From: an uncultured Ruficoccus sp.
Lineage (GTDB): Bacteria > Verrucomicrobiota > Verrucomicrobiia > Opitutales > Cerasicoccaceae
Reading direction: 5' to 3'
Assembly (NCBI GenBank): GCA_965140785.1
Contig: OZ223505.1
Span: 1 to 64,000, forward strand
Length of the DNA: 64,000 bases
The translations under genes and the position numbers were made by a program. Position 1 is the stretch's first letter; the number at the start of each line of letters is the position of its first letter. Below the pieces are notes generated by a model. The model made no database searches, was not told where the DNA came from, and worked only from the letters and a program-made list of their open reading frames with translations. This document shows positions 3,820-59,782 of this stretch, piece after piece.

Positions 3820-3993
3820 AACCGCAAAGTGCGCGAAGAACGCAAAGTGGATTTTCCCTTGTTGGCTCCCGCTGCGTCTTCGGTTTGTCGTATCGATCCC
3901 TGTTTTTAAATGTATGATCCCAGTGAAGATAAGAAGACCCGGTGTGTTCGTTTCCGACGGGATCGCTTCGCGTCCTTCGCGCTCTTTGCGGTT
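3820..3993. repeat. Periodic inverted-arm element A (arms 3820-3847 / 3966-3993)
   Basis: aaccgcaaagtgcgcgaagaacgcaaag ... cttcgcgtccttcgcgctctttgcggtt; 25/28 complementary. Confidence 0.85.
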
Positions 3994-4047
3994 GCACTCT
4001 TTCTTCCCGGTTGGGATCGATAACGGCGTTTCCGCCGGACACCTCTC

Positions 4048-5220
4048 ATGATTTTAAACAAACTTATGCCGCTGGGCATTCCGCTGGCCTGGCTCAACCT
4101 GATCAAGGAGAAGAAGCGCTTCTTCGCGGCGGTGGCGGGCATCACCTTCGCCGTGACGATGATGATGTTCCAGATGGGGCTCAACTCCGCGCTCTTCAAG
4201 CAGGTCGTCGGCCCGCACGCACGGATGGCCGCGGACATCTTCATGGTCAGCAGCCAGTACGAGTACCTCGGCGTGAGCAAGGGCTTCCCGCAGCGCCGGC
4301 TCATTCAGGCCGAGGGCGAGCCGCAGGTGGAGCAGGTCGTGCCGCTCTACGTCGGCAGCCTGCCCATGCTCAACACCGCCAAGCGCACCACGCGCGAGGT
4401 CTTTATCATGGCCTGGGACCCGGCGGTGCAGGCCTGGGCCGATCCGGATATCGAGAGCCAGCGCTGGAAGCTCAAGCGCGACGGCGTGGTGCTCTACGAC
4501 CGGCTTTCGCGGCCCGAGCTGGGGCCCTTTGTGCAGGAGGTCGAGGAGACGGGCGAAGCCGTGACCGAGGTGGCCAACAAGCGCATCACCATCGAGGGCC
4601 TTTTTTCGATTTCCCCGACCTTTGTGGCCGACGGCAACATGCTCGCCAGCACCGAGACCTTTCTGCCCCTGTGGCCCGGCGGTGACCCCTCCGTGGTCAG
4701 CCTCGGCCTGGTCCGCGTGAAGCCCGGGGCCGATCCTGCCACCGTGGCCCAGTCCCTCAGCGACTACCTGCCCGATGATGTGCGCGTGTACACCCGGCAG
4801 GCCTTTCTCGACTACGAGATGGAGTACTGGCGCGAACGCACGCCGATCGGCTTTGTCATCACCGCGTCGATGGCGGTGGCGTTGATCGTGGGCGCGGTCA
4901 TCGTGTATCAGATCCTCTATACAGACGTGAACGACCATTTAGAGGAGTACGCCACGCTCAAGTCCATCGGCTTCCGCGACAGCTATTTTACGAGCGTCAT
5001 TTTGCAGGAGTCGGTTATCCTGAGCGTTTTCGGGTTTATACCGGGGACGCTTTTTACGTGGGGGCTGTTTTACTTCACCCGCCACATCGCGCACATGGCG
5101 ACGTACCTTGACCTGACCAACTGCGCCATCATCTTCGGGCTGACGCTGTTCATGTGCCTGGCTGCCGGCGGCCTGGCCACCCGCAAACTCCGCCACGCCA
5201 ACCCGGCCGAAATCTTTTAA
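4048..5220 (+). CDS. devC: ABC transporter permease, DevC family
   Basis: IPLAWLNL...RFFAAVAGITFA, 'VIVYQILYTDVNDHLEEYATLKSIG' and C-terminal 'KLRHANPAEIF'. Confidence 0.9.
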   Translation: MILNKLMPLGIPLAWLNLIKEKKRFFAAVAGITFAVTMMMFQMGLNSALFKQVVGPHARMAADIFMVSSQYEYLGVSKGFPQRRLIQAEGEPQVEQVVPLYVGSLPMLNTAKRTTREVFIMAWDPAVQAWADPDIESQRWKLKRDGVVLYDRLSRPELGPFVQEVEETGEAVTEVANKRITIEGLFSISPTFVADGNMLASTETFLPLWPGGDPSVVSLGLVRVKPGADPATVAQSLSDYLPDDVRVYTRQAFLDYEMEYWRERTPIGFVITASMAVALIVGAVIVYQILYTDVNDHLEEYATLKSIGFRDSYFTSVILQESVILSVFGFIPGTLFTWGLFYFTRHIAHMATYLDLTNCAIIFGLTLFMCLAAGGLATRKLRHANPAEIF

Positions 5221-5226
5221 CCGACC

Positions 5227-5931
5227 ATGAGCGCAAAGCCCATTATCCGCGTCAAAGACCTGCACTACTCCTTCCGCGAAGGCGAGGGGATGAAGGAGGT
5301 CCTGCACGGCGTCTCGGCGGACTTTTACCCCGGCGAAATCGTCATCATCATGGGCCCCTCGGGCTCCGGAAAGACCACCTTCCTGAAACTCCTGGGCGGC
5401 CTGCGCACGGTGCAAAAGGGTAGTATCGAGATCGACGGCCAGCGGCTCGAGGAAGGCCGCAAGGAGGACCTCGTGCAGGTGCGCCGCAAGATCGGGTTCA
5501 TCTTCCAGAACCACCACCTGATCGCCTCCCTCTCGGTCTGGCAGAACGTCATGATGCCCCTGTCCTTCAACCCGAAGGAGACGGCCCGCACGGCCCGCCC
5601 GCAGGCGCTCGACATCCTGAATCAGGTCGGGCTCTCCGAGCACGTGGAGAAGAAACCCTCCCAGCTCTCCGGCGGGCAGAAGCAGCGCGTGGCCATCGCC
5701 CGCGCCCTCGTGCACCATCCGCGTATCGTCCTGGCGGATGAGCCGACCGCCTCGCTCGACGGCAAGACCGGCCGCGAAGTCGTGGACCACATCCACCGCC
5801 TGGCCAAGCAGTCCGGCGCGACCATCCTGCTCGTCACCCACGACAGCCGCATCCTCGACGTGGCCGACCGCATCATCGAGCTGGAGGACGGCATCCTCAA
5901 CCCGGACCCGCCCGCCGCCGGGCAGACCTGA
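5227..5931 (+). CDS. devA: ABC transporter ATP-binding protein, DevA family
   Basis: Walker [36 protein letters not shown]. Confidence 0.88.
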
Positions 5932-6133
5932 GCGAACTCGCTCCCGGAGGCCGCAGGAAGGCCCGTGCGGCGTGAAGGAAGGTATACCTGCTCACTGGGC
6001 AGGTCGCTCCCGCGCCTGTCTATGGATGCTCCTTATGATAATTTAGCTTATCATTAGAAGATGGACTTATAGGGCGTCTGAGCCAGACTTTTTATTGTCA
6101 TGGGGTCGGCTTGGCCCGGATAGTGGTCGCGTT

Positions 6134-7411: not shown

Positions 7412-7450
7412 GGGGGCCGAGCCTTTGGGGCTCACCCGGATTTCTTCAGG

Positions 7451-7488: not shown

Positions 7489-7564
7489 TGCAAAATTGCC
7501 TGTAAAATCCGGCAAAAGCACGTATGGTTTTTTATTCTCTTAACCATAAACCTGTCAGACTCTT

Positions 7565-8786: not shown

Positions 8787-8957
8787 GGCGGATGGCGGGA
8801 TGCCGAATAATAGGGCTCAAGCGCTTTTTATATCAAGCGAATATGCCGTGTGCGGGCACCTCCTGGATCCCGATGCATCGTCCATTCGGGGGTCGCAATA
8901 CGCAGTTGACGAACGCTGTTAAAGAAGCGATTTTCGTCCTCTGTTCTTTTTACAATT

Positions 8958-9330
8958 TCAGGGGTGAGCTCTTGCGGCTCGGCGCTTGCGCCGGGTCGAG
9001 GAAAGTCCGGACACCATAGGGCAGGATTCCCGGTGAAAGCCGGGGCGGGGCGGCGTGAGCCAGCCTCGACGGATCAGTGCCACAGAAAATATACCGCCTT
9101 GCGCCTCGGCGCGGGGTAAGGGTGAAAAGGTGGGGTAAGAGCCCACCGCCGCTTGCGGGCAACCGCGCGGGCAGGGTAAACCCAATCCGGTGCAAGACAG
9201 TGTAGGGGACCGGGCGGCCCGTCCATACGGTCCCGGGTAGGTCGCATCCCTTCGGGGAGACGCGCTTGCGCGTCAGATAAATGAGGGCACCCGCTTCGGC
9301 GGGAACAGAATCCGGCTTATGATCCCCTGA
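8958..9330 (+). ncRNA. rnpB: RNase P RNA, type A
   Basis: GAGGAAAGTCCGG, CAGTGCCACAGAAA, GGGTGAAAAGGTGGGGTAAGAGCCCACC, GGTAAACCC and ACAGAATCCGGCTTA; ends pair (tcagggg/cccctga). Confidence 0.97.
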
Positions 9331-9340
9331 TCTTTTTCCG

Positions 9341-23304: not shown

Positions 23305-23388
23305 TTAACCGCAAAGAGCGCAAAGGTTCTTAAGGCTTCGTCGTGTGTTCTGGTCTGTCTTCGCGTCCTTGGCGCACTTGGAGGTTAA
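23305..23388. repeat. Periodic inverted-arm element B
   Basis: ttaaccgcaaagagcgcaaagg ... cttcgcgtccttggcgcacttggaggttaa. Confidence 0.8.
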
Positions 23389-24929: not shown

Positions 24930-25010
24930 TTACCACAAAGGCACAAAGCCCCGCCGTGGCTGTAAGTTTTTCCGGCATCTCTTTTCGTCCTTTGCGCTCT
25001 TTGCGGTTAA
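24930..25010. repeat. Periodic inverted-arm element C (degenerate left arm)
   Basis: ttaccacaaaggcacaaag ... cttttcgtcctttgcgctctttgcggttaa. Confidence 0.75.
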
Positions 25011-44760: not shown

Positions 44761-45765
44761 TCACCTGCGCCACTCGCTGGTGATGAGCACCTTGCCGTTG
44801 CGGCCACCGGCATTGGCGCGGGCGACGGCTTCGAGGGCTTGTTCAAAGGGATAGGTGCTGTCGATGGGCAGCTTGATCACGCCCCGGGCCATGAAGTCGT
44901 AGACCTCGGCCTGCATGGCGTCGAACTCGGCTTTGTCGTGGGTGCGGATCCAGCGGTCCATCCAGAAGCCGCACAGGCACACGTCGTTGAAGATCAGATT
45001 GCGGGTGGGGAAGCGGACCTTGTCCCCGACCATACCGCCGAAGGTGACGACCTTGCCGGAGTCGGCCAGGCAGCGGATGATGCGGATCACGCTCTCGCCG
45101 CCGATGGAGTTCAGGCCCAGACGCGGCTTGGCCCCGCCGGTGAGGGACTTGATGTCCTTGAAAAAGTCCGAGTCCTCGGCCACCACCACGTCCGCGCCCA
45201 TCTCCTTGAGGATCGGTTCCCAGGTGGCGGTGTCGCGCACGATGTTGATCGTCTTGAGCCCCATGTTCTGCGCGAGCTGGATGACGGAGATGCCCACGGC
45301 GGAGTTGGCGGCGTTCTGGATGATCCATTCGCCGGGCTTGAAGTCGATGTAGTCCCGCAGCAGCCGCAGGGCGGTCGGCGGGTTGACAAAGGCCTGCGCC
45401 GCCATCTGCACCGGCACGTCGGCGGGGATTTTAATGAGGTCGGCGGCGGGGGTGACCACGGCCTGCATCCAGCAGCCGGGCTCCTCGGGCATCTTGACCT
45501 GCTGGCCGGGCTTGAGATCCTGCACGCCTTCGCCGACGGCGAGGACTTCGCCCACGGCCTCGCGTCCGGCCACGGCGGGCAGGTCGCGCAGACGGCCGTA
45601 GGTGCCGCCGATCATTCCCATGTCGGAAGGGTGCAGGACGGCCGCGCGCAGGGCGACCAGGGCTTGACCGGGGCCGGGCTCGCCCACCGGCATCGGTTCG
45701 AGCTTCAGGACCTCTTCGGGTTTTCCGCGTTCGTGGTAACGGACTGCTTGTGGTTCAGTATTCAC
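44761..45765 (-). CDS. MDR-superfamily 2-enoyl thioester reductase (MECR-like)
   Basis: HPSD..MIGGTYG, VNPPTALRLL, IQNAANSAVG, VTFGGM and GFWM. GTG start assumed. Confidence 0.88.
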   Translation of the reverse strand: MNTEPQAVRYHERGKPEEVLKLEPMPVGEPGPGQALVALRAAVLHPSDMGMIGGTYGRLRDLPAVAGREAVGEVLAVGEGVQDLKPGQQVKMPEEPGCWMQAVVTPAADLIKIPADVPVQMAAQAFVNPPTALRLLRDYIDFKPGEWIIQNAANSAVGISVIQLAQNMGLKTINIVRDTATWEPILKEMGADVVVAEDSDFFKDIKSLTGGAKPRLGLNSIGGESVIRIIRCLADSGKVVTFGGMVGDKVRFPTRNLIFNDVCLCGFWMDRWIRTHDKAEFDAMQAEVYDFMARGVIKLPIDSTYPFEQALEAVARANAGGRNGKVLITSEWRR

Positions 45766-45902
45766 GAAAACAATTAACCACGATTCCGGCCCGTTCGCCA
45801 TAAAAATCCCTGATTCGTTTCGGATTTATAAGCGCCACGCGAGGGGCGGATAACTCCGTTAGGATAGGCCCCGGCGGAAGGTGTCGGTGCTTCGTAAATA
45901 TA

Positions 45903-45984
45903 TTTAACCACAGAGCGCACAGAGGATTTTTAGGGACTGAGGTTTATTCATTTCTCTGTGTGCTCTGTGTCCTCTGTGGTTAAA
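45903..45984. repeat. Periodic inverted-arm element D (CACAGAG variant)
   Basis: tttaaccacagagcgcacagag ... ctctgtgtgctctgtgtcctctgtggttaaa. Confidence 0.85.
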
Positions 45985-46114
45985 ACAATAAACGGCAGGG
46001 GGGTAAAAAGACATTTCCCTCCCTCGGCGTCGTAATCAATTCCCCATCCGCGGCTTGCTGTTTTTTGCGTTTGGCATCAATGGTTAACCCCACACTTTTC
46101 CTGAACAACCCATT

Positions 46115-48244
46115 ATGGACCATCCCTTTCTTCACGACAGCTTCATCATTCCCTGGCACGAGCTCACGACCGAGCACATCCAGCCCGACATCGAGCTGGC
46201 TCTGACCCGCGCCCAGGAGCGCATTGACGCCATTGCCGACACGCCGCTGGAGGCGGTGACGTTCGCCAACACCCTGCTCGCCCTCGAAAAGGCGACCGAG
46301 GGGTTGACCCGCGCCTGGGGCTGCGTCGGCCACCTTGACAGCGTGGACAACAGCCCCGCCCTGCGCGAGGCCTACAACGCCATGCTCCCGAAGGTCTCGG
46401 AGTTTTACACCCGTATCAGCCTGAACAAAAAACTCTGGCTGGTCATCAAGGCGTTCGCTGAGACCGCCGAGGCGAAGGCGCTGAGCGGCACCCGCAAGCG
46501 CTTGCTGGAGGAGACGCTGGAAGACTTCCGCCTGAGCGGGGCGGACCTGCCTGAAGAGAAAAAGAAAGTCCTCGAAGGCATCAACGCCGAGCTTTCGCGC
46601 CTGACGCAGAAGTACGGCGAGAACGTCCTCGACTCCACCAACGCCTGGGAACTGCTCGTCGAGGACGAGTCGCGCCTGGCCGGGCTTCCGCAGTCGGCCA
46701 AAGACGCCGCCCGCGAATCCGCCAAGTCCAAGGGTCACGGCTCGGACGAGCAGCCGGTCTGGCGCTTCACCCTGCACATGCCCTCCATGCTGCCGGTGAT
46801 GAAATACGCTGACGATGAGTCGCTGCGTAAGCAGGTCTGGGAGGGCTCCATCGGCATCGGGCAGAAAGAGCCGCATGACAACACGGACCTGATTTGGAAG
46901 ATTTTGGAAAAGCGGCAGGAGAAGGCCGAGCTGCTGGGCAAGGCACACTTCGCCGATCTCGTGCTGGAGCGCCGCATGGCCAAGGACGGGGCTGCCGCGC
47001 TCGCCTTCACCGAGGACCTGCACACGCGCATCAAGGACGCCTTCGCCGCCGAGGTGGCCGAGCTGGAAACGTTTAAGGCCGAGCAGACCGGCACCGAGCG
47101 CGACCACCTCCAGCCCTGGGAAGTCGCCTACTGGTCCGAAAAGCTGCGCAAGCACCGCTACGCCCTCGACGAGGAGGAGCTGCGCCCGTACTTCCCCATC
47201 AACCGCGTGGTCGAGGGGATGTACGAGCTGGTCGAGCGCATTTTCGGGGTAAAGATCGTCCAGCGGCCCACCCGCTACACCGACCCCGAGAGCGGCGAGG
47301 AGCAGACGTTCGACGAGGGCACGCCTTCGTCCGACCACGCCATCGCCGAGGTTTGGCACCCGGATGTGAAGTTCTACGACCTGCTCGACGGTGACGGCAC
47401 GCACCTGGGCTCCTTTTACGCCGACTGGTACCCGCGCGAGTCCAAGCGCGGCGGCGCCTGGATGAACTACCTGCGCACCGGCGGCCCCGTCCCCGGTGAC
47501 AAGCCCGAGCCGCACCTGGGCTTGATGTGCGGCAACCTCAACCCGCCCGTCGGCGGCAAGCCCGCCCTCATGAACCACCGCGACGTGGAGACGATTTTCC
47601 ACGAGTTCGGGCACCTGCTGCACCACCTGCTGGGCAAGGTGGACATCAAATCTCTCAACGGCGTCAACGTCGCCTGGGACTTCGTCGAGCTGCCCTCGCA
47701 GATCATGGAAAACTGGTGCTGGGAAAAGGACGCGCTCGACCTCTTCGCCAAGCACGTGGAGACCGGCGAACGCCTGCCCGCCGAACTGCTCGACAAGATG
47801 CTCGCGGCCCGCAACTTCGAGCAGGCCACCGCCACCATGCGCCAGCTCTCCTTCGGCAAGATGGACCTGGACCTGCACATCGGGATCAAATCCCACGAAG
47901 GCCGCGACCTCGACGCCTGGATCGACGAGTCGCTCGCCGACTACCGCGCCCCGCTCAAGACGAAGACCCCCGCCATCGCGCGGCGCTTCACGCACCTGTT
48001 TTCCGACCCCACCGGCTACGCCGCCGGGTACTACTCCTACAAGTGGGCCGAGGTGCTCGACGCCGACGCCTTCACCCGCTTCCAGCAGGAGGGCGTACTC
48101 AACCCGGCCACCGGCAAGGACTTCCGCGAAAAGATTCTGCAAAAGGGCAACTCCGAGCCGCCCGCAAAGCTCTTCCACGACTTCATGGGCCGCGACCCGG
48201 ACCTCAACTCCCTGTTGCTACGTGCCGGACTACAGCCGGCGTAA
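46115..48244 (+). CDS. prlC: M3 family oligopeptidase A
   Basis: KRGGAWM, FHEFGH, WDFVELPSQIMENW and YAAGYYSYKWAEVL. Confidence 0.92.
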   Translation: MDHPFLHDSFIIPWHELTTEHIQPDIELALTRAQERIDAIADTPLEAVTFANTLLALEKATEGLTRAWGCVGHLDSVDNSPALREAYNAMLPKVSEFYTRISLNKKLWLVIKAFAETAEAKALSGTRKRLLEETLEDFRLSGADLPEEKKKVLEGINAELSRLTQKYGENVLDSTNAWELLVEDESRLAGLPQSAKDAARESAKSKGHGSDEQPVWRFTLHMPSMLPVMKYADDESLRKQVWEGSIGIGQKEPHDNTDLIWKILEKRQEKAELLGKAHFADLVLERRMAKDGAAALAFTEDLHTRIKDAFAAEVAELETFKAEQTGTERDHLQPWEVAYWSEKLRKHRYALDEEELRPYFPINRVVEGMYELVERIFGVKIVQRPTRYTDPESGEEQTFDEGTPSSDHAIAEVWHPDVKFYDLLDGDGTHLGSFYADWYPRESKRGGAWMNYLRTGGPVPGDKPEPHLGLMCGNLNPPVGGKPALMNHRDVETIFHEFGHLLHHLLGKVDIKSLNGVNVAWDFVELPSQIMENWCWEKDALDLFAKHVETGERLPAELLDKMLAARNFEQATATMRQLSFGKMDLDLHIGIKSHEGRDLDAWIDESLADYRAPLKTKTPAIARRFTHLFSDPTGYAAGYYSYKWAEVLDADAFTRFQQEGVLNPATGKDFREKILQKGNSEPPAKLFHDFMGRDPDLNSLLLRAGLQPA

Positions 48245-48330
48245 GGTGGGACGGCGTTTTACACCAATTGAGAAGATGGATTTATAGTGAGTCGCAATCC
48301 ATCAAATAGATCAGAAACAGTTCAAACGTT

Positions 48331-48639
48331 CTATGCATTCTGCTCTAACCACAGCTCTTCCCATGTCTCAACCCATGATGGTGGCGTGCTGGACCAGACA
48401 TCGCACACATCATACTTATACTCTCCATCATCATTACGATCAATCAGAGCTTTAGCGTATGCCTCAATGTCATCGCGGTCAAAATAACGAGAAATAATTA
48501 CGGCTATTTTGTCTCCATATCCAATACCTAAATCTTGATAAGCACTTTTTAGAGCGTCATCTAAAGATGGTGCCCTTTCGATTGGAATGCAATCATCACC
48601 TCTGCGACAAATCAGATAATTATATTCTTCGTGATTCAT
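48331..48639 (-). CDS. Small acidic hypothetical protein in an AT-rich islet
   Basis: Open ~102-aa frame in AT-rich DNA, where long ORFs are unlikely by chance. Start uncertain. Confidence 0.55.
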   Translation of the reverse strand: MNHEEYNYLICRRGDDCIPIERAPSLDDALKSAYQDLGIGYGDKIAVIISRYFDRDDIEAYAKALIDRNDDGEYKYDVCDVWSSTPPSWVETWEELWLEQNA

Positions 48640-48896
48640 ATTTATAGACATAGTTAAAATCAATAAATCCTATATATTGACATGATTAATAATATTATTT
48701 CGTCAATCCTGAATGTTGTTCATTGAATTAAGCCTTATCGATGAGTCGCCTTATACGCAGCGCTCCGGGTCGGTTTTGGGGAACCTTTGCCTACGGGGCC
48801 TGTTCTATGCCGCGTGGAGACAAGGCGTACGGCCCCGCATAACCGACGGCGTTTCCTTGAAAACCCGCAGGAACTGAATTTGCTAAAGAGATAACC

Positions 48897-49637
48897 ATGA
48901 ATACCATCCTCTCACTTTCCCTTTTCCCCTCGCTCGGCTTCATCATCCCGATGGGGGGCGGCTGGGGCCTGTGGCTCGTGCTCATCGTGCCGACGATCAT
49001 TCTCGGCATCTGGGCCCAGCACCGGGTCACGAGCACCTATCGCAAGTACAGCCAGGTGCCCTCGCGCGGACGCATCTCCGGGGCGGAGGCGGCCTCCGCC
49101 GTCATGCGCAAGGCCGGGATCACCGATGTTGAAATCGTCGAAATCGGCGGGCACTTGACCGACCACTACGACCCGGTCAACAAGCGTCTCGCGCTCAGCA
49201 GCGCGAACTACCGGGGCACCAGCCTGGCCGCGCTCGGTGTCTCCGCCCACGAGGCCGGGCACGCCATCCAGCACAAGGTCGGCTACAAGGCGCTCAACCT
49301 GCGCATGGCCCTGATCCCGGTCACGAGCTTCGCCTCGCAGATCCTGCCCATCGTGCTGATCGCGAGCTTCTTCCTGCCCCTGCTGGGGGTGATGGGGATC
49401 AAGATCGCGGTGGTGTGTTACCTGATCCTGACGGTTTTCCAGCTCATCACGCTGCCGGTGGAGTTCGACGCCAGCGCCCGCGCCCGTAAGGAGCTGGTCG
49501 GCATCGGCATCATCGACCAGGACGAGTCCATCGGCGTCGTGCGCACGCTCAATGCCGCGGGCTGGACCTACGTGGCCGCCTTCATCAGCTCGCTGGCCAA
49601 CCTGATCTTTCTCTTCCTGCTCTCGCGCGACCGGTAA
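48897..49637 (+). CDS. Membrane zinc metallopeptidase (YugP/Zn_peptidase_2 family)
   Basis: LTDHYDP, AHEAGHAIQH, TLPVEFDASARA and LNAAGWTYVA. Confidence 0.92.
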   Translation: MNTILSLSLFPSLGFIIPMGGGWGLWLVLIVPTIILGIWAQHRVTSTYRKYSQVPSRGRISGAEAASAVMRKAGITDVEIVEIGGHLTDHYDPVNKRLALSSANYRGTSLAALGVSAHEAGHAIQHKVGYKALNLRMALIPVTSFASQILPIVLIASFFLPLLGVMGIKIAVVCYLILTVFQLITLPVEFDASARARKELVGIGIIDQDESIGVVRTLNAAGWTYVAAFISSLANLIFLFLLSRDR

Positions 49638-49659
49638 AGCCGTCGCTGGGCGGGATGCT

Positions 49660-49824
49660 AGGGCCTGTTCAGGTAAACGCTCAAAGCGGCATAAAATGGG
49701 TCTTTTCGCTCTGGAATCGACGTTTTTCGACTCGATGAATCTTGATTCACCTCGTCTCAAAACCTCAATTCAGCCTCGAAAATCCCTCATTTTTCCATCT
49801 TTTCCGTTTACCTGAACAGGCCCT
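49660..49824. mobile_element. MITE-like element, 165 bp
   Basis: 20-bp perfect terminal inverted repeats agggcctgttcaggtaaacg / cgtttacctgaacaggccct; imperfectly palindromic interior; no ORF. Confidence 0.8.
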
Positions 49825-49842
49825 GGATCATCCGCTTTTTCC

Positions 49843-49879
49843 AAACCGGACTTCCGCCCGAAGTCCGGTTTTTTGTTTT
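49843..49879 (+). terminator. Intrinsic terminator
   Basis: aaaccggacttc-cgccc-gaagtccggttt plus T run. Confidence 0.85.
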
Positions 49880-49968
49880 CGGTTTTCCCGTTCCGACGCA
49901 GATTCTTATTCTGCGTGAATTACCCGCCTTTTCTTGACTAACTAATAAATCCCGGCAGCTTGGCTAAT

Positions 49969-50361
49969 ATGCTGCGACTCTCCGGCTGCTGCCTGCTTTT
50001 GCTGGCCCTGCTCTCCGCTCTCAATGTTCATTGGGCGGTCCTGCAGGGCGTGGCCTGGGCGAGCATGCTGAGCAAGGAGCAGCAGCGCGCGGCCACTTAC
50101 CGCGAAGCGATTGAGCGGACCTTCGGCGGGGAGTATCCCTGCGAAATCTGCGGACTGATTGATCAGAACCTCCTCAAGGAGCCCGCGCCGCTCAAGGCCG
50201 CCCGTCAGGCCGAATACCTCAGCGTAAAGCTGATCCTGCCCCGGGCCGAGAAGATCGTTCCCGTCCCGGCCAGCCAGCGCATGGCGCTGATCCCGGCCCC
50301 GGATACACGGGCGGCTGTGTTGCCGTCCCTGCCGGAGACGCCGCCCCCACGGCTCAGTTAA
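49969..50361 (+). CDS. Small exported/membrane protein with CxxC and C-terminal polyproline (DUF2946-like architecture)
   Basis: Hydrophobic N-terminus, 'HWAVLQGVAW', 'YPCEIC' and C-terminal 'PETPPPRLS'. Confidence 0.7.
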   Translation: MLRLSGCCLLLLALLSALNVHWAVLQGVAWASMLSKEQQRAATYREAIERTFGGEYPCEICGLIDQNLLKEPAPLKAARQAEYLSVKLILPRAEKIVPVPASQRMALIPAPDTRAAVLPSLPETPPPRLS

Positions 50362-50462
50362 AGCGTCTCTCTCTTTCTTTTCCTATCCCGTGCGCTGAGG
50401 CAAAAAATGCTTCAGGGCTGCCCGGGTCTTCTCTGTTTACAGACTTATAACTTTCACGACAA

Positions 50463-51140
50463 ATGTATCATAAAATATTTTTATTCTCCCTGGGCTCTCT
50501 CTGCGCCCTCACCTCGCAGGCTGCGGAGCTGAACAGCGTCGGCCAGATGATGCCGATGATTCATATCAACATCGATTTCAACAGCTTCAACGACGAGCTG
50601 AGCGTCCACGTGGACAGCGGCGTGCCGCAAATGCAGCCGCTCAGCGTCGCCTCGCCGGGCGACTCCTTCAACCCGGCCGCCCCGTGGTACACCACGCTTG
50701 ATCCCAGCCAGGAGGGACTGGCCTGGACGCGGCGCTACGGCTTCGTCGCCACGAATGACCCGGCTCCGGAAGGATTGAGCTTCTGGGTCGATCTCGACGT
50801 AACCACGATGGGGCTGGAGGCTTACTTCACCCGGACTGAGCCGGACATGTTCACGCCTATCTTCGGCACGGACGGCTCCAGTACCTTGTGGGAGTTTCCC
50901 AATACCATGATCCACCCGGTTTTCGCGGGCGATCCGACCGTGGCCAGCTATGTGCTGACCGGCACGATCTATGTGGGCGACAGCGAAGGCGTGGCTGCAG
51001 CCGGGTACAACAGCGCGGCGTTTACGCTTAACTTCACCTCGGTGCCCGAGCCGGGCGTCTATGCGCTGGCGGTGGGCCTGCTCGCGCTGGTGCCGCTGCT
51101 GGTCCGCTGCCGGAAAGGGAAGGCGGGCGCGCGTGCTTAA
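50463..51140 (+). CDS. PEP-CTERM protein with Met/His motifs
   Basis: Signal peptide, 'QMMPMIHI', 'TMIHP' and VPEP+TM+basic tail. Confidence 0.85.
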   Translation: MYHKIFLFSLGSLCALTSQAAELNSVGQMMPMIHINIDFNSFNDELSVHVDSGVPQMQPLSVASPGDSFNPAAPWYTTLDPSQEGLAWTRRYGFVATNDPAPEGLSFWVDLDVTTMGLEAYFTRTEPDMFTPIFGTDGSSTLWEFPNTMIHPVFAGDPTVASYVLTGTIYVGDSEGVAAAGYNSAAFTLNFTSVPEPGVYALAVGLLALVPLLVRCRKGKAGARA

Positions 51141-51873
51141 CTTCTCCATTTGTCTCCGCCGTCCCCGGTCCCACTCCGGGGCGGCGTTCACCTTGATCGA
51201 GGTGCTGGCGGTGTTGACCGTGCTCAGCCTGCTCGCGGCGCTGGCCGTGGTGGCGGGACGGGCCGCGGTTCACAGCGCGCAGCTCAGCCGCTCCACCGCG
51301 ACCATCCGCAACCTCGGGAACGCCGCCTTGCTCTATGCCACCGACCACGAGGGCAACTGGCCGCGCAGCAACCACGCCTTCAGCGCCCGTGAGCGTCAGT
51401 GGTGGCTCGTCCTTTCAGGCTACCTGTGGAGCGAGTCGTTGACCAGTCGCTACGACCCGCGCTTCGCGGTTTACCATGAGGCCATGCTGCGCGACCCGCT
51501 CGACCCGGTGGAGGGTTCTGGCGATGCCCAGCGTAACCGCTACAGCTACGGCATTAACGTGTACCTCCAGCTCGATCCGGCTTTCGACGACTACGCCGGT
51601 AAACCGGTCCGCTGGCACAAGGCACCGCTCGTCGCGCAGCCGGGGCGCACCGTGCTCTTCGCTTCCAACCGCCAGCAGAGCAGCGACCACTTCATGGCGC
51701 ATTTCTGGGCTTCAACCGGCGACGACCTGACGGATATCGACCTGCGTGAGGAGGGGCGGGCCGTCTACGTTTACTGTGACGGCCACGTCGCCTGGCAGCG
51801 TCCGGCGGAGGTCTTCGCGCCGGAGGCGGGCATTAACCAGTGGCATCCCGCCGGGATGACCGAAGGACCATGA
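51133..51873 (+). CDS. Prepilin-type N-terminal cleavage/methylation protein (H-X9-DG-like C-terminus)
   Basis: AFTLIEVLAVL, 'NLGNAALLYATDH', SYGIN and 'VYVYCDGHV'; GTG overlaps the upstream gene's end. Confidence 0.82.
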   Translation: MLNFSICLRRPRSHSGAAFTLIEVLAVLTVLSLLAALAVVAGRAAVHSAQLSRSTATIRNLGNAALLYATDHEGNWPRSNHAFSARERQWWLVLSGYLWSESLTSRYDPRFAVYHEAMLRDPLDPVEGSGDAQRNRYSYGINVYLQLDPAFDDYAGKPVRWHKAPLVAQPGRTVLFASNRQQSSDHFMAHFWASTGDDLTDIDLREEGRAVYVYCDGHVAWQRPAEVFAPEAGINQWHPAGMTEGP

Positions 51874-51911
51874 GACGCAGCGTGAAATCACCCGTGGGCC
51901 GGGCGCGAGAT

Positions 51912-52352
51912 TTACATCTCGTTGCTCGGGATGGCGGTGGGGGAGGCGGTGCCGCTGGTCACGGGCGGGTTGGTCGGGGTCAGCACCACGGCGTCCTTGC
52001 CGTTTTTGACCACCACGAGCACGTCGTCCGAGCGGGAGGTGAGCTGGCCACCGTCCAGAGCGGAGAGCAGGTTGTCTTCGAGCTGCATCAGCTCGGGCTC
52101 TCCGGCCATCTTGGTGGAAATTCCGATCCCGATGTACCCAGACTTGCTGACCGGGGCGGACCAGTTGTTGACCGGGCCGCGGCCCAGCAGGTTGTCGCCG
52201 GTGTAGGTCACCTTGATCGGCTGGGCGGTTTCGACCTCGTTGCCGTTGACCTCGGCCACGATATAGTCCCCGGCGACGGGGATCGGCGTGTGCGAGCAGG
52301 CGGCGAAAGTGAAAATCGACAGAACGGAAAGAAGTGCGAGGATGGATTTCAT
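51912..52352 (-). CDS. META domain (HslJ-like) lipoprotein
   Basis: Lipobox FAAC, 'GRGPVNNW' and 'STKMAGEPELMQLEDNLLSAL'. Confidence 0.8.
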   Translation of the reverse strand: MKSILALLSVLSIFTFAACSHTPIPVAGDYIVAEVNGNEVETAQPIKVTYTGDNLLGRGPVNNWSAPVSKSGYIGIGISTKMAGEPELMQLEDNLLSALDGGQLTSRSDDVLVVVKNGKDAVVLTPTNPPVTSGTASPTAIPSNEM

Positions 52353-52503
52353 GCCCGGAGCAAAGGCCGTAAGGTTGCGGTTGGCAAGCCGTTTACGCGC
52401 GACGTATGGGCGGAATCGATCCGGGTAAGGGCTGGGCGGATCTTCCTGGCCAACCTGTAAAACCGCATTGCACCGGCGGGCGGATGGGTTACGGTGGCGG
52501 TTC

Positions 52504-54672
52504 TTGAGCGAGGAAACCGAGCAGTCCCCCCTGGCCGAGCGGCCAAAAATCCGCGTCCTGCCCGACCGCGTGATCAACCAGATCGCCGCGGGGGAGGTGA
52601 TCGAGCGTCCGGCGGCGGTGGTCAAGGAACTCCTCGAAAACGCCCTCGACGCCCGCGCGGACCGGATCGAGATCGAGTTTCGGGGCGGGGGCAAGAGCCT
52701 GATCCGGGTCGAGGACAACGGCATCGGCATGACGCCGGAGGACGCCCTGATCGCGCTCGAACGCCACGCCACGAGTAAGCTGCGCGAGGCCGCCGACCTG
52801 GCCAAGGTGCTCAGCCTGGGCTTTCGCGGGGAGGCGCTGCCGAGCATCGCCAGCGTCAGCCGCTTCACCCTCCGCAGCCGCGCCCGGGGTTGGGAGCACG
52901 GCACGGAGGTCTTCGTCAACGGCGGTCGCATGATCCACCAGCGCGAGTGCGGGATGCCGCCCGGCACCCGGATCGAGGTGGCCAATCTTTTCAACAGCGT
53001 GCCGGCGCGCCGGAAGTTTTTAAAAAGCGACGCCACCGAGTCGGCCCACATCACGCATCTGGTGCGGCTTCACGCGGTGGCGCGGCCAAGCGTGTCCTTC
53101 TCGCTGATCGAGAATGGCCGCAGCGTCTTCTCTTCGCCTAAGTGCCCCGACATGCGCGAGCGCGTGGCCGAGATCTGGGGCCGCGAGCTGGCCGATGAGC
53201 TGGTCGAGCTGGAACCGGCGACCGGTGAAAACGGAATGCGCCTCTCCGGCCTGATCGGCAAGCCCGGCACGGGCCGCGCCACCCGGCGGCAGATGATCGC
53301 GCTTGTCAACGGGCGTCCGGTGGATTCACGCACGCTCAACTACGCCCTGATCGAGGGCTACCACTCCTTTATCCCGAAGGGGCGCTACCCGCTGGCTTTT
53401 CTTTTTCTGGAGATCGACCCGGCGGTCATCGACGTGAACATCCACCCGGCCAAGCGCGAGATCAAGTTCCGCGACGAGGGGCGGGTGCGCCAGTTCGTGC
53501 TCCAGGCCGTCGTCGGGCAGCTTCAGGCCCTGGCCGCGCAGGCCCGCCACCCGGTTCTGCACGGGACGCGGGAGGACTTTGAAAAAGACGTGCTGCCCCG
53601 GCGCGATCCCAAGCCGCATCCGCTGGCGGGCGAATCCTCCGCCCCCTCGGCGAAGGCGGGCGATCGGCCCGCGTCCCCGCCGCAGCCGAAGCTCACCCCC
53701 GCGACCCGGCCCCCGGCCTATCCGCGCACGCGGCCCGGCCCGGTCTCGGATGATTTTAAAGACAAGTACCTCGCGCCCGACAAAACCGGCTCGGATAAAA
53801 ACGCTGAGCCCGCCGCGCGGGAAAGTTCTGAAATCCCGGGTGCTCTTTCCGATCGAAAGCAGCAGGGCCGTCGGGCAGAAGGGACTTCGGATAAAGCCAG
53901 CGGGGCAGGGGAGGCGATTCCCCCTGCGCCCGGTTTCGAATCCGGTTCAGCCAGCCCGTCGCCCGCCCGCCCGCAGTCGCCGGCTTCCGACGACTCGGGC
54001 GAGCTGCCTGTGGTCAAGTGGACCCCGGCCCAGCCCGGAACCGGCCCCGCGCCGCAGACCCAGCCCGACGGTGAGGAGTCCCCGGCCCCGGCCTTCCGCT
54101 TCGAGTGGCGCTGCCTGGGGCTGATGCGCGATGGCTACGCGATTTTCGAAACCCCGGCGGGGCTGGTTCTGATGAACCGTCGTGCCGCGCACGAGCGGGT
54201 CTGGTTCGAGCGCCTGCAGGCGCGTTTCGCCGAGCGCGAGCAGCCCAGCCAGCGACTGCTTTTTCCGGTCGCGCTGGAGCTGGAGCCGCTGACCGCTGCC
54301 GCCCTGGAGGAAAATCTGGAGGCGCTCCAGGCGCACGGCTTCGGGATCGAGCCTTTCGGGAAAAACTTTTTCCGCCTTGAATCGCACCCGGACTGGCTAC
54401 CCGAGAGCGAGGCGGAGACCTTTGTGCGCGACCTGATCGAGCGCCTCCGCGAGGGCTCGCTCGATCTGACCCGCCCTGCCGTGGCGGACGAGTCGCTGGC
54501 CCGGCTGGCCGCCACGCGTGCCCTTCGTCCCTCGGACGCAAGCGGTTGCGAAGAAATGGCTGAGCTGGCCCGCGCCTTGCTACAATGCCAGCAGCCTCTG
54601 AACTGCCCGCGGGGGCGGCCCACCTATTTCGAGTTGTCCAACCGCGAGCTGGCCCGGCGTTTCGGGCGCTAG
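52504..54672 (+). CDS. mutL: DNA mismatch repair protein MutL
   Basis: NQIAAGEVIERPAAVVKELLENALDA, GFRGEALPSI and DVNIHPAKRE; long Pro-rich linker. Start uncertain (TTG 52504). Confidence 0.95.
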   Translation: MSEETEQSPLAERPKIRVLPDRVINQIAAGEVIERPAAVVKELLENALDARADRIEIEFRGGGKSLIRVEDNGIGMTPEDALIALERHATSKLREAADLAKVLSLGFRGEALPSIASVSRFTLRSRARGWEHGTEVFVNGGRMIHQRECGMPPGTRIEVANLFNSVPARRKFLKSDATESAHITHLVRLHAVARPSVSFSLIENGRSVFSSPKCPDMRERVAEIWGRELADELVELEPATGENGMRLSGLIGKPGTGRATRRQMIALVNGRPVDSRTLNYALIEGYHSFIPKGRYPLAFLFLEIDPAVIDVNIHPAKREIKFRDEGRVRQFVLQAVVGQLQALAAQARHPVLHGTREDFEKDVLPRRDPKPHPLAGESSAPSAKAGDRPASPPQPKLTPATRPPAYPRTRPGPVSDDFKDKYLAPDKTGSDKNAEPAARESSEIPGALSDRKQQGRRAEGTSDKASGAGEAIPPAPGFESGSASPSPARPQSPASDDSGELPVVKWTPAQPGTGPAPQTQPDGEESPAPAFRFEWRCLGLMRDGYAIFETPAGLVLMNRRAAHERVWFERLQARFAEREQPSQRLLFPVALELEPLTAAALEENLEALQAHGFGIEPFGKNFFRLESHPDWLPESEAETFVRDLIERLREGSLDLTRPAVADESLARLAATRALRPSDASGCEEMAELARALLQCQQPLNCPRGRPTYFELSNRELARRFGR

Positions 54673-54816
54673 GGGGCTCGCGCCCATGTTCTTTTAACCG
54701 TTAGTCAAACCCGTTCATTTTGCCGTGCGGACTTGAGAAACGTTGACCTTTATTGTTCAATAGCCCATTCCAAGCCTGTCACTTTCCTTTGATCCAAACC
54801 CTCTATTCTTACCGCT

Positions 54817-57336
54817 ATGCCTTCGAGTTCCAAAGCCACGAAAAAAGCCGCTAAGGCGCCCGCCAAGAAAAAGGCCTTCAATTTCAATATCGACGCCGAT
54901 GTCGATGGCCTGAAAACCTCGATCGAGAATCACCTGACCTATTCCCTGGCCCGCGACAAGACCACCGCCACGACACGTGACTGGTGGCTGGCGCTGTGCT
55001 ACTCGGTCCAGGACCGCATCCTGCACCGCTACATCAAGACCCAGGCCGTTCACAACGACAAGGACACCCGCCGCGCTTATTATCTGTCCCTGGAGTACCT
55101 GATGGGCCGCCTGCTCTCGAACAATCTGGTCAACGCCGGGCTTTTCGAGTCCGCTCAGAAAGCGCTGGAGGAACTGGGCCTGGACATGACCGAGATTTTG
55201 GAGGAGGAGCCGGACATGGGCCTCGGTAACGGCGGTCTGGGCCGCCTGGCCGCGTGTTTCCTCGACTCGCTGGCCACGCTCGACCTGCCTGCCGTCGGTT
55301 ACGGCATCCACTACGAGTTTGGCCTCTTCCGGCAGGAGTTCATTGACGGGCGCCAGGTGGAGCGCCCGGACAACTGGCTGCAGTTCGGCAACCCCTGGCA
55401 GGTCAACCGGCCTGAGTACCAGGTGAGCGTGCCGCTCTACGGCCACGTCGAGTACCACTTTGACAGCAAGGGCGACTCCTACCCGGCCTGGGTCGGTACC
55501 CGCGAGCTGGTCGGCCTGCCCTGGGATGTGCCGATTGTCGGCTACGGCGCCCGCACGGTCAATTTCCTGCGCCTGTGGGAGTCCCGGGCCTCGCAGGAGT
55601 TCGACTTCAGCGTCTTCAATGAGGGCGGTTACGTCGAGGCCGTGCGCGAGAAGGCCATCGGCGAGACCATTTCCAAGGTCCTGTACCCCAACGACAAGAC
55701 CGAGAGTGGCAAGGAGCTGCGCCTCGTCCAGCAGTACTTCTTCGTGGCCTGCTCGCTGCACGACATCATCCGCCGCTTCCGCAAGCAGAACCACGACGAC
55801 TGGGATGCCTTCCCGGACAAGGTTACCGTCCAGCTCAACGACACGCACCCGTCCGTGGCTGTGGCCGAGCTCATGCGCCTGCTCGTGGATATCGAGGGTC
55901 TGGAGTGGGACCGCGCCTGGGGCATCTGCCGCAAGGTCTTCGCCTACACCAACCATACCCTCCTGCCCGAAGCGCTTGAGAAGTGGTCCGTCCCGCTCTT
56001 CCAAAAGGTCCTGCCGCGCCACCTGCAGATTATTTTCGAGATCAACCGCCGCTTCCTGGAGGAAGAGGTCGAGGCTCACTGGCCCAGCGACAACGCCAAG
56101 AAGGGCAACCTCTCCCTCATCGAGGAGGGTAACCCGAAGCAGATCCGCATGGCCTACCTGGCCACCGTCGGCAGCCACTCGGTCAACGGCGTGGCCGCGC
56201 TCCACACCGAGCTGCTCAAGCGCGACCTCTTCCACGACTTCAACGAGCTGTGGCCGAACAAGTTTAACAACAAGACCAACGGCATCACGCCGCGTCGCTT
56301 CCTCAAGGTCTGTAATCCCGGCCTGGCCAAGCTCATCGAGCGCGAGATCGGCCCCGAGTGGCCCTTCGACCTGGACCGCCTGCGCGGCCTGGAAAAGCTG
56401 GCCGACGACGCCTCCTTCCAAGACGAGTACATGGCCGTCAAGCGTGCCAACAAGGAGCGCCTGGCCGAGGTCATCGAGATGGACTGCCAGGTTAAGGTCA
56501 ACCCGGACGCCATGTTCGACGTGCAGATCAAGCGTCTGCACGAGTACAAGCGCCAGCACCTGAACCTGCTGCATGTGCTCACCCTTTACCGCGACATCCT
56601 CCATCACCCGGAGAAGACCTTCGCCCCGCGCGTGGTCATCTTCGGGGCCAAGGCAGCGCCCGGCTACGAGTTGGCCAAGGATATTATCTATACGATCAAC
56701 AAGATCGGGGACGTCATCAACAACGACAAGCGCGTGGGCGACAAGCTCAAGGTCGTCTTCCTGCCCAACTACCGGGTCTCGCTGGCCGAGCGTATCATCC
56801 CTGCCGCCGACCTCTCCGAGCAGATTTCCACCGCCGGTAAGGAAGCCTCCGGTACCGGCAACATGAAACTCGCCCTCAACGGCGCGCTCACCATCGGCAC
56901 CCTCGACGGGGCCAATGTCGAGATCAAGGAGGAAGTCGGCGACGAGAACATCTTCATCTTCGGTATGACGGTGGAGGAGGTGATGGAACTGCACGCCGCC
57001 GGGTACAACCCGTGGGACTTCTACCGCGGCGATGACGACCTCAAGCATGTGCTCGACTGGCTCGGCTCAGACACCTTCACGCCCGGCCAGCCCTACGCGC
57101 TTGACGCGGTCCGCCACAGCCTACTCGACGGGGGCGACCCCTTCATGGTCTGTGCGGACTTCACCGCCTACATCGAGTGCCAGAAGCGCGTCGGCGAGGC
57201 CTACCTCGACAAGAAGCGTTGGGCGAAGATGGCCATCCTCAACACCGCCCGCATGGGCAAATTCTCCAGCGACCGCACCATCCGCGAGTACGCCGATGAT
57301 ATTTGGAATCTCAAACCGCTGCCGGTGGGCGAATAA
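54817..57336 (+). CDS. glgP: Glycogen/alpha-glucan phosphorylase
   Basis: [30 protein letters not shown] and EASGTGNMK. Confidence 0.97.
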
Positions 57337-57359
57337 CCGCCCCGGCGGCACGTCACCTT

Positions 57360-58169
57360 TTGAAAACACAAGAGCTCTGTAAATTTTACCGCACCCGCGC
57401 CAAGTCGGTCAATCTCGGCGCCAGCTACAAGGCGCTGGCGGGTAAGTACGTGGACGGCTTGCTGCCCGCCGAGCCCGCCGCCGTGCAGCCGCGCCTGCGT
57501 GTGAGTACCGAGAGTGGCCTCGACCGCGAATTGGTCCTGCAAGGGGGCATCCGCACCTTCGAGTGGGTCTTGACCGGGCAGGGCCTGGCTGACATGGCCT
57601 TTTTGCGTGAGAGCCAGCTTCTCCTGCACGACCTGTATCCGTCCGGGTTCCTGAGCGTGGTCAACGCCGCCGGGACCTTCGCCACGCCACAGGCGCTGCG
57701 GGGCTTCGTCGAGGCGCTCGATACGGACGATGGCCTGCACATGATCGGGCGCAACCTGCTTTACATTCTCGATTCGTTTCCGCCGGAGCTGGCCTTTCAC
57801 CGCGACGTGGTGGCGCTCTTCGCCGAGTGGCCGCGTCGCCCGGCCATGGTTCTGACTGCTGACGGCACCCCGCCGAACTTCCTCTCTCGCGCGCTGGACT
57901 GGGGCTACGCCGGGATCGTCTTGCAGGCGGCCAAGGACTTCGAACGCGCCGTGGCCGACCGTTGCTACCTGACCGCCCGCAAGGACCGCGAGCCCATCGG
58001 CAAGTACACCTTTGACGGCGGTTCGCTGCCCATCAGCCAGGGCCGCGAGGCCATCCTCAACGAGCTGGCCGCCCAGTCCGTCCTCGGGAACAAGTCGGTC
58101 GGCTGCGAAGCCGTCTCCGCCCTCCTCGAACTGATCGGTGGCGAGCACCCAGCCTCGGCCAAGGCGTAA
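57360..58169 (+). CDS. Hypothetical protein
   Basis: Host-like codon usage, directly downstream of glgP; TTG start assumed; no family recognised. Confidence 0.65.
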   Translation: MKTQELCKFYRTRAKSVNLGASYKALAGKYVDGLLPAEPAAVQPRLRVSTESGLDRELVLQGGIRTFEWVLTGQGLADMAFLRESQLLLHDLYPSGFLSVVNAAGTFATPQALRGFVEALDTDDGLHMIGRNLLYILDSFPPELAFHRDVVALFAEWPRRPAMVLTADGTPPNFLSRALDWGYAGIVLQAAKDFERAVADRCYLTARKDREPIGKYTFDGGSLPISQGREAILNELAAQSVLGNKSVGCEAVSALLELIGGEHPASAKA

Positions 58170-58187
58170 GCGGGTTGGCGTTTTTTT

Positions 58188-58419
58188 ATTAACCGCAAAG
58201 ACGCAAAGGACGCTAAGCGCTACCGCTGTTAGGCGATAGCATACGAATGGCGGTACGCCTTCTTAACAAGCAAACGCCCAAGATCCCTTTTTATTGGGAT
58301 ATTTCTCTTTTCACCCGGAACGACAAGTAACGGTCAGAGTTTAGACTATCTTAAATAAAGATGAGGGGCACCAATCAATAGCGCCAGCGCTTTGCGTCCT
58401 TCGCGCCTTTGTGGTTAAT
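58188..58419. repeat. Periodic inverted-arm element E (arms 58188-58221 / 58386-58419)
   Basis: attaaccgcaaagacgcaaaggacgctaagcgct ... agcgctttgcgtccttcgcgcctttgtggttaat; 30/34 complementary. Confidence 0.88.
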
Positions 58420-58426
58420 CCTCTCC

Positions 58427-58468
58427 CCATTGGCCATTGACTAATGACCCATGACCGAGGACAAATGA
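58427..58468. repeat. Heptamer tandem repeat (6 degenerate units)
   Basis: ccattgg-ccattga-ctaatga-cccatga-ccgagga-caaatga. Confidence 0.7.
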
Positions 58469-58478
58469 CTCCTTTCCC

Positions 58479-59483
58479 ATGTCTTCCCTCACGCTCCATT
58501 CTCCCCTCGATATGCACCTGCACCTGCGGCAGGATGCGATGTTGAAAGCCGTGGCTCCGCTCAGCGCGGAGACCTTCGCCGGGGCCGTCATCATGCCCAA
58601 CCTGGTGCCGCCGGTAGATTCGCTGGAGCGACTGGAGGGGTACCGCGAGGAGATTCTCGCCGCGAGCGGACGGGATGACTTCGCGCCGTTCATGACGTTA
58701 TTTTTCCGCGCCTACACCCGCGAGGAACTGGTGGCGGCCAAGCCGCACATCATCGGGATCAAACTCTACCCGGCGGGCATCACGACCAATAGCGAGGGCG
58801 GTGTCTCCCAGATCGAGCAGGCCGAGCCGACCATGCGCCTGATGGAGGAGCTGGGTATCCCGCTCATGATCCACGGTGAGACCAACGGCTTTGTCATGGA
58901 CCGCGAGACGGAGTTCATGTCCATCTACCGGCAGCTCGCCATTCGCTTCCCGCAGTTGAAGATCGTGATGGAGCACATCACCACGGCCGGGGCGATCGCG
59001 CTGCTGAACGAATTTGAAAACCTGCACGCCACCGTGACCGTGCAGCACCTGCTGATCACGCTCGACGAAGTGGCCGGCGGCATGCTCAACCCGCACCTGT
59101 TCTGCAAGCCGATCGCGAAGCGCCCCGAGGACCGCGAGGCGCTGGCCCACGCTGCCGTTACCGCGCACCCGAAGCTGTCCTTCGGCTCTGACTCAGCCCC
59201 GCACCCGGTGCACAAAAAGGAATGCTGCGGCTGTGCGGCGGGGGTCTTCACCGCGCCCATCGCCCTGCAACTGCTGGCCGGGCTCTTTGAGCAGCACGGT
59301 GCACTTGACCGGCTGCAAGCCTTTGTCTCGGGCAACGCACGCCGGATCTACGGCGTCACCCCGCCGGTCAAGACCGTTACCTTGGAGAAAAAGCCTTTCG
59401 CCATCCCGGCCAGCTACGGCGAGGTCGTCCCCATGTGGGCCGGGCAGGAAATCCCCTGGAGCCTCAGCGCGGTCAAGGCCTGA
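58479..59483 (+). CDS. pyrC: Dihydroorotase (homodimeric type)
   Basis: [39 protein letters not shown] and GSDSAPH. Confidence 0.95.
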
Positions 59484-59512
59484 CGGCAGCCGTCGGGGAT
59501 TCGTTTTTTTAT

Positions 59513-59782
59513 TTAACCGCAAAGGCGCGAAGAGCGCAAAGCGCTGACGCTCGAATGCCATCGTGCTGCTGTTTCTGAACGGAATAATTGTCAGCCTGTT
59601 GGTGGGCGGGAGAGTTTAAGACTATAGGCAGATGCACGGCCTGCCCCTTGCGTAGCCATGCATACGCCCAGTCAGCCCTAAAAATCAACTGGGGTGACCG
59701 CCTCGATGAAAGGCTGTGGAAATTCGGCGAGCCCACGAGCCATAGCGTCAGCGCTTTGTGCGCTTTGCGTCTTTGCGGTTAA
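59513..59782. repeat. Periodic inverted-arm element F (arms 59513-59551 / 59744-59782)
   Basis: ttaaccgcaaaggcgcgaagagcgcaaagcgctgacgct ... agcgtcagcgctttgtgcgctttgcgtctttgcggttaa; 35/39 complementary. Confidence 0.9.

Follow-up and report, generated by a model that had tools for sequence, protein, structure and literature searches.

Periodic-Arm Hairpins Between Genes of an Uncultured Ruficoccus sp.: Likely DNA Cassettes With a Proposed GxxExxY Nuclease-Fold Partner

Introduction

Six intergenic hairpin elements, A to F, lie in the first 64,000 nt of contig OZ223505.1 of an uncultured Ruficoccus sp. (assembly GCA_965140785.1; this whole stretch is called the window here). Their inverted arms consist of short tandem words, and the DNA between the arms differs from one element to the next. 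What are such elements, and do they act as DNA or as RNA? A preliminary description, made from the letters of the window, took them for non-autonomous or emptied members of a mobile or intervening-sequence system, and pointed to similar arms around GxxExxY and four-helix-bundle genes of other bacteria. Our analysis indicates that they are likely mobile cassettes at the level of DNA and not introns of mRNA; on the best reading of the sequences, the complete form of the family would carry a GxxExxY gene with a nuclease fold. We propose, with a probability of about 0.55, that the six belong, as gene-less forms, to a family of DNA cassettes bounded by inverted periodic arms, with a GxxExxY protein predicted to bind and nick their single-stranded DNA (ssDNA) hairpins, and with nicks and template switching as the steps that would reshape them. 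The source genome (G000; 4.36 Mb, GC 0.59; its contigs carry C-numbers) was compared with four congeners (G001 to G004), whose third-position identity to it is 0.57-0.66.

Results and Discussion

Structure of the Elements and Extent of the Family

All six hairpins are real and sit at the coordinates first reported for them; A, D, E and F are clean, B is decayed and C partly so. With the unit inside E and the gene between E and F they are:

3820..3993, element A: periodic arms of the CGCAAAG type, 118-nt insert, 14 nt past the stop of an HlyD-family gene
23305..23388, element B: a decayed element whose right arm is degenerate
24930..25010, element C: short copy, two units in the left arm
45903..45984, element D: CACAGAG-type arms, at a divergent junction
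58188..58419, element E: arms of 43 nt, on the upstream side of pyrC
58216..58391, + strand, inner unit of E: ends AGCGCT(G/A)NCGCTRT, core of ~150 nt
58479..59483, + strand, pyrC (dihydroorotase): TIGR00856, E 1e-108, with E and F on either side
59513..59782, element F: 39-nt arms, inner ends as in E, different 192-nt insert

Among the 97 inverted repeats of the window, E, F and A are the longest three; D comes 15th, and B and C fall outside the top 25. Predicted folds pair arm with arm in A, D, E and F, partially in C and not in B. The arms are tandem words of 8-10 nt beginning AACC, and the genome has 55 occurrences of a two-unit arm pattern, compared with 1, 0 and 1 in three shuffles. A looser search returned 76 arm pairs vs 2 in a shuffled genome; after removal of five judged by eye to be non-periodic or coding and addition of B and C by hand, the set holds 73 paired periodic-arm hairpins with at least eight arm words, 19 of them of the window's type. 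They are extragenic inverted doublets (0/73 inside a called open reading frame, ORF), and unpaired arms are common (32/64 by the strict pattern). As the preliminary description had it, the window appears free of transposases: no transposase family was matched among the 33 window ORFs scanned, from 186 listed. The inserts, described as AT-richer than the genes, have an interior GC of 0.38-0.57 against 0.59 for the genome, which bears this out except for F (0.57), hardly AT-rich at all.

In D, E and F the two arms of one element had also been said to resemble each other more than the arms of other elements. Across the 19 elements of the window's type own arms agree at 21.9 of 26 positions vs 18.4 between elements (permutation p = 0.0002), and the same excess is seen for two other arm words, not for three others.

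The GxxExxY Gene and Its Protein

The suggested link with GxxExxY genes was recovered close at hand. At 20 kb beyond the window, the window's own arm type, here of the form AACCGCAAAG, encloses an intact GxxExxY (PF13366) gene (C34:83723-84266; TIGR04256, E 1.4e-42). PF13366 occurs at five loci of the source genome (six matches, one gene being frameshifted), each inside inverted arms of its own word. Over 16 genomes of the family, flanking inverted arms were found at 59 of 66 GxxExxY loci (68 listed matches minus the second half of a split gene and one fragment), and the arm words track the protein clades. To judge from the sequences, this co-variation means that arms and gene travel together; it is not evidence of recognition. 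At the starts of contigs C18 and C40 an arm stands at the contig end, and the assembly has a gap at the junction where five relatives carry a GxxExxY cassette; a sixth GxxExxY gene of the source genome may therefore be unassembled.

The putative catalytic residues E32, D72, E82, K84 and Q96 are invariant in 32/32 aligned GxxExxY proteins. A model built with the protein alignment reached a pLDDT of 93 (the single-sequence fold was unusable, pLDDT 37), and its nearest solved folds, by Foldseek alone, are Cas4 (E 3.9e-3, TM 0.49), alkaline exonucleases and Hjc, enzymes that act on single-stranded or branched DNA. A sequence search of the PDB gave no match at or below 0.001, and a search of viral contigs with one query gave no relative. 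The model suggests a single-domain protein of ~130 residues, of the PD-(D/E)xK type and Cas4/RecB fold, whose nuclease activity is predicted.

Similar arms accompany the other gene family mentioned: both four-helix-bundle genes of the source genome (L007 and L008; TIGR02436, the 23S intervening-sequence family) lie between operon genes in periodic arms of their own type. A gene-less hairpin of that arm type occupies a junction that holds GxxExxY in G004. The window itself contains a further hairpin (34955-35159), whose periodic arms are of another kind (AAATGGCT-type units) and enclose 135 nt, between two co-directional genes; its arm has four other matches in the genome, and its style is one that we take to resemble the arms at four-helix-bundle genes.

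Exchange of Content at Fixed Sites

The suggestion that the arms mark sites of content exchange is supported by the congeners, where the corresponding sites are empty, refilled with other DNA, or have kept the element. Site A is empty in G001 (29-nt spacer), carries another arm variant in G002 with non-significant insert similarity (z 1.7), retains one half arm in G003, and holds two small arm-less ORFs in G004 (L069:2657-3165), one of them VapD-like (below the curated cut-off). At site B, G002 (L050) has an unrelated palindromic repeat of another family and G004 two arm-less ORFs; at site C, G002 has a homologous element (z 7.2) and G004 none; neither junction is conserved in G001 and G003. 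Site D is empty in G001 and G004 and filled by nested arm stacks of several words in G002 and G003. Sites E and F are armed in G001, G002 and G003, the pyrC of G004 having other neighbours. The sites are thus neither invariant nor filled by one miniature inverted-repeat transposable element (MITE). The unit of pyrC flanked by E and F, present in 4/5 species and replaced by other neighbours of the gene in G004 and other genera, looks like a small composite element.

Within the source genome, 70 of the 73 paired elements gave no match to the GxxExxY profile, the only matches being three full genes. The six elements are gene-less, as first described. Whether they had been emptied is a separate matter. 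At three sites the gene was indeed replaced by other DNA with one or both arms kept: at the C34:83723 site in G003, at C39:106750 compared with the G002 counterpart (L371), and at the gatA-gatB junction of the source genome (names read from the translations), where only the last ~10 GxxExxY codons and the right arm remain, behind foreign ORFs. Against this, a GxxExxY remnant was present in 0/70 gene-less paired elements, and an origin of gene-less copies by internal deletion of a gene cassette was not borne out. A whole gene can be the insert, as on C14, where the arms hold a 132-aa ORF without a family; the same cassette at the same locus in G001 indicates vertical inheritance, and movement was rejected for it.

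Three further observations concern such sites. In G003 (L289), an ORF of ~220 aa lies inside a double-armed GxxExxY cassette, and the source genome (L004, C10:105.3k) keeps only the first codons of this ORF; the junction is empty in G001 and G002. One contig from run X2, otherwise identical, lacks 193 nt (L298:16899-17091; C18:108898-109090) that take in the end of a gene and the left arm of an armed element, and a further 23 nt beyond them; this is either a strain variant or an assembly error. Contigs of runs X1-X3 over window positions 44500-60500 and C18:92000-111999, with patchy cover, gave no well-supported joint skipping D, E or F.

Insertion Footprints

Three loci preserve traces of insertion. 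The gene cassette on C3 lies between 18-nt repeats in which the stop codon of one operon gene overlaps the start codon of another, and this 18-nt sequence is single-copy in all four congeners and in the paralogue on C40; the cassette is a young insertion with no transposase inside. A gene-less copy at C48:31848, its left arm identical to that of C3 over 39 nt, is bounded by a repeat of 10-13 nt holding the convergent gene's stop, single in G002 and G003. At L364 in G004 the duplicated stretch is the final 38 nt of the gene upstream of the cassette. Outside the arms at these three loci, 12-33 nt belong to the inserted unit or to a spacer. Repeats of at least 12 nt border 4/73 elements vs 0.27% in controls. 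A general target duplication was rejected, since most insertions show none; the scarcity reflects either decay of old repeats or one of several routes of insertion.

Unrelated Inserts, the E Core and Inversions

The six inserts, described as unrelated, are not mutually homologous, and only 2 of 18 window-type interiors have a partner in the source genome (E and C48:148378), leaving 16/18 without a homologue. The description does not extend to the core of E, which belongs to a multi-locus family, or to four other arm types, whose interiors are mostly homologous; for the other arm words, homologous interiors numbered 8/10, 5/6, 5/10, 6/7 and 6/11. Many copies of these words lie within outer inverted ends common to the copies, as MITE-like carriers; such nesting is seen in the hairpin classes of 79 nt and of 95-98 nt and in many hairpins of 60-80 nt. 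By their sequences, most copies of the four types are MITE/REPIN-like units.

The sub-family of E and F, with ends AGCGCT(G/A)NCGCTRT, comprises 16 elements in four genomes; 13 align at 171-179 nt and three, including F, do not. The E core is found at several unrelated loci in four species, one of which is empty in the source genome. Its orientation relative to pyrC changes between species, being +, +, - and - at E (G000, G001, G002, G003) and -, + and - at F (G001-G003; the congeners carry an E-type core at F), and it is also inverted at the C48:148.4k site in G002. Identity between the E and F cores of a genome is 81% and 90% where they are inverted (two genomes) and 59% where they are direct, three cases only, compared with 53-62% between species. 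The arms of the 16 elements evolve in concert: in the periodic part, left and right arm match at most of the variable columns in 14-16 elements vs 7-11 expected, and at three variable inner-end columns in only 7-9.

Two accounts of the E core were considered. The inner unit may be a separate MITE inserted at AGCGCT, although five genomes contain no empty AGCGCT-tipped hairpin. As a structured RNA, an account that was rejected, the core has 20 predicted pairs, with only the terminal stem conserved and an unfavourable covariation term. A pattern search of GTDB contigs gave 118 matches, of which just three loci proved to be true armed copies. A blastn-type comparison with 201 genomes from the order gave no convincing E core outside the genus, and neither a longer element nor a parent transposase with E's ends was found in the searches.

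These data bring in an alternative that we consider doubtful, while taking it seriously: the arms would be relics of old GxxExxY cassettes, with gene-less copies spread by unrelated transposases, as MITEs, and by ordinary recombination. Replication slippage alone would equalise the arms and invert the interiors, and the protein would be no mobiliser. The nested hairpin classes speak for it, as do the copying of the E core as a unit to several loci, MITE ends found inside window-type arms, and five arm-rich genomes lacking the cognate gene. The window's own arm type, however, has no outer MITE ends and its interiors are nearly all without homologues, the young C3 cassette contains no transposase, and neither of the two Y1-transposase genes of the source genome has such an arm nearby. 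The number of arms also increases with the number of GxxExxY genes (rho 0.72 over the 16 related genomes, which are not independent).

Gene Junctions and the Question of RNA

Four of the six window elements (A, B, C and E) lie between co-directional genes, as had been noted, with D at a divergent and F at a convergent junction. For the whole set, with junction classes from a crude ORF caller, co-directional junctions were not enriched (40/73 vs a 55% background), convergent ones were enriched (30/73 vs 23%, p 4e-4) and divergent ones depleted (3/73 vs 23%, p 1e-5). At least one stop codon precedes 70/73 elements, and 24 of the 40 co-directional elements start within 36 nt of the stop. The counts indicate that the elements follow stop codons and not operon junctions. 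Repetitive extragenic palindromes (REPs) are likewise placed after stop codons (PMC3733652).

The preliminary description had considered that the arms might loop cargo out of operon mRNA. In full, the arms would pair in the operon transcript and RNase III would remove the insert, as it cuts out the intervening sequences (IVS) of rRNA, or the stems would stabilise mRNA 3' ends as REPs do. The position directly past stop codons, the long stable folds of A, D, E and F and the similar arms around 23S-IVS-family four-helix-bundle genes in the source genome are all compatible with this, and we nevertheless regard it as very unlikely. Sense-strand mismatches in the arms comprise 39 G.U vs 49 A.C in the 40 co-directional elements and 35 vs 50 in 27/32 gene cassettes; the pooled ratio of 74:99 compares with 32:4 in 83 terminator-like stems found symmetrically (p 2e-7). 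The pattern is of the DNA type and not of the RNA type, and selection of the stem as RNA was not borne out. Since the transcribed strand has no G.U excess and operon junctions are not preferred, convergent ones being enriched instead, looping out of mRNA is not supported; interiors also flip, and the E core lacks a supported consensus structure.

A Proposed Mechanism and What Weighs Against It

In the reading that we favor, the arms would extrude as ssDNA hairpins, and the GxxExxY protein of the matching clade would nick at or near the hairpin. Repair by host polymerase with template switching would then even out the arms and invert the interior; equalised arms combined with an inverted spacer are the known mark of a polymerase that switches template between inverted repeats (PMC8604942). 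The same breaks could admit other DNA (genes, MITEs, other hairpins) in place of the interior, and such replacement would explain why the inserts differ. Nick-and-copy insertion at gene ends may produce new copies, the accompanying duplication varying between 10-38 nt as in insertion with long target duplication, and some gene-less hairpins of other arm types probably spread as passengers of ordinary MITEs.

A bolder version goes further than we would lean, and we put it forward tentatively, the odds being against it. The GxxExxY protein may be a Cas4/RecB-fold mobiliser that reads a tandem DNA word on hairpins, one word per clade, and works with host repair alone. It would insert arm-bounded cassettes at gene ends, with a duplication that preserves the stop codon, and an armed site would then be an exchange slot for foreign genes, a gene-capture system similar to an integron without integrase or transposase.

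Several results weigh against the proposed role of the protein. Arm-protein co-variation is expected from cis inheritance alone, and template switching requires no dedicated protein (PMC8604942). A GxxExxY gene with a strict-pattern arm is missing from five arm-rich genomes (78 arms in G003, 41 in G012, 35 each in G007 and G008, 30 in G014), and G011 and G015, with three and five GxxExxY genes, have one strict-pattern arm each. The fold matches are weak, with none at or below 0.001. Several cassettes are old and vertically kept, and no case was found of one GxxExxY cassette taking the place of another at a shared junction, the five proteins compared forming one clade (support 78/79). Long duplications are rare (2/66 gene loci; 0/15 arm pairs in 20 loci of relatives), the six window elements show no convincing target duplication, and of the four cases with repeats of at least 12 nt, one resembles the end of a MITE, and another lacks an empty site for comparison.

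Relation to Known Systems

The system works most like NTS-ssnA-NTS and REPIN/RAYT, and by protein and repeat structure it belongs to neither. As with Ssn and its NTS/SRM repeats, a small single-domain nuclease gene stands between inverted repeats, gene-less repeats occur elsewhere in the genome, and there are many repeat-protein pairs (PMC11893778). Ssn is a GIY-YIG protein (cd10448), whereas the protein here matches PF13366 only and is a predicted PD-(D/E)xK nuclease; the Ssn repeats are palindromes (PMC11893778), whereas the arms here are tandem words of 8-10 nt.

SsnA cleaves ssDNA next to its repeat and modulates transformation (PMC11893778), which raises the alternative that the GxxExxY protein is a guard of this kind, cutting incoming arm-bearing ssDNA and tuning gene exchange, with the repeats kept as targets for the host and mobility a side effect. 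We think this unlikely. It agrees with the retention of E and F in 4/5 species and with a single-domain protein whose nearest folds act on ssDNA; the layout, too, is that of NTS-ssnA-NTS (PMC11893778). The window's type, on the other hand, has just 19 paired copies among at least eight arm words per genome, the sites turn over between species, and no PADLOC model matches.

With REP/REPIN-RAYT systems and TIRtrons the elements share extragenic inverted doublets with a variable spacer, mostly at co-directional or convergent junctions, and a cognate gene flanked by the same repeat (PMC3116915, PMC3733652). They differ in lacking the GTAG/CGTC tag, in that a single arm is not a palindrome and that interiors can be whole genes; the source genome has two PF01797 (HUH Y1 transposase) genes, neither with a window-type arm within ~1 kb. 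REP stems show a G.U preference (PMC3733652), unlike the arms here.

Restriction-modification (RM) units inserted with long target duplication are similar in pairing a nuclease-fold gene with a long variable direct repeat and no transposase, and some of them also have terminal inverted repeats (PMC2853133). Their criterion is a duplication of >30 nt (PMC2853133), whereas those here measure 10-38 nt, contain a stop codon and occur at few sites; moreover, there is no methylase here and gene-less copies are abundant. The 23S rRNA IVS with an ORF (PF05635/TIGR02436) also place stem-forming arms around an optional small ORF, unlike the present elements in that these lie outside rRNA genes and have a DNA-type mismatch pattern. 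The inner unit of E and several other arm classes share with MITEs a short length, a lack of coding sequence, inverted ends and presence at more than one locus; unlike MITEs, the elements have no fixed-length target duplication, no parent transposase was found in our searches, and window-type interiors are mostly unique.

No description of the system was found in the accessible literature (subscription papers and supplements lay outside its scope). Our best reading of the sequences is that the periodic arms and GxxExxY form a nuclease-repeat partnership like the known ones, with a new type of protein and of repeat, the activity being predicted. PF13366 is listed as of unknown function across prokaryotes and viruses (PMC3424549), and with these elements it gains a definite candidate substrate, a separate word for each clade. 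Its specificity thus becomes approachable through oligonucleotides and exchanged pairs, the route taken for Ssn. Should the protein mobilise the cassette, nuclease-repeat partnerships would have a third chemistry beside HUH and GIY-YIG; the system would also account for hot spots of gene gain and loss at operon junctions, and may yield compact sequence-specific ssDNA nucleases.

Other Features of the Window

Between E and pyrC, at 58428-58470, lie unpaired units of the type TGAC(T/C)(A/C)ATGAC, kept in G002 and G003. A 165-nt MITE-like element with perfect 20-nt inverted ends, at 49660-49824, recurs several times in the genome, in full or in part; one of its ends lies inside the armed element at C43:93238. 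The sole match of the window in an Rfam scan was the class A RNase P RNA at 8957-9335.

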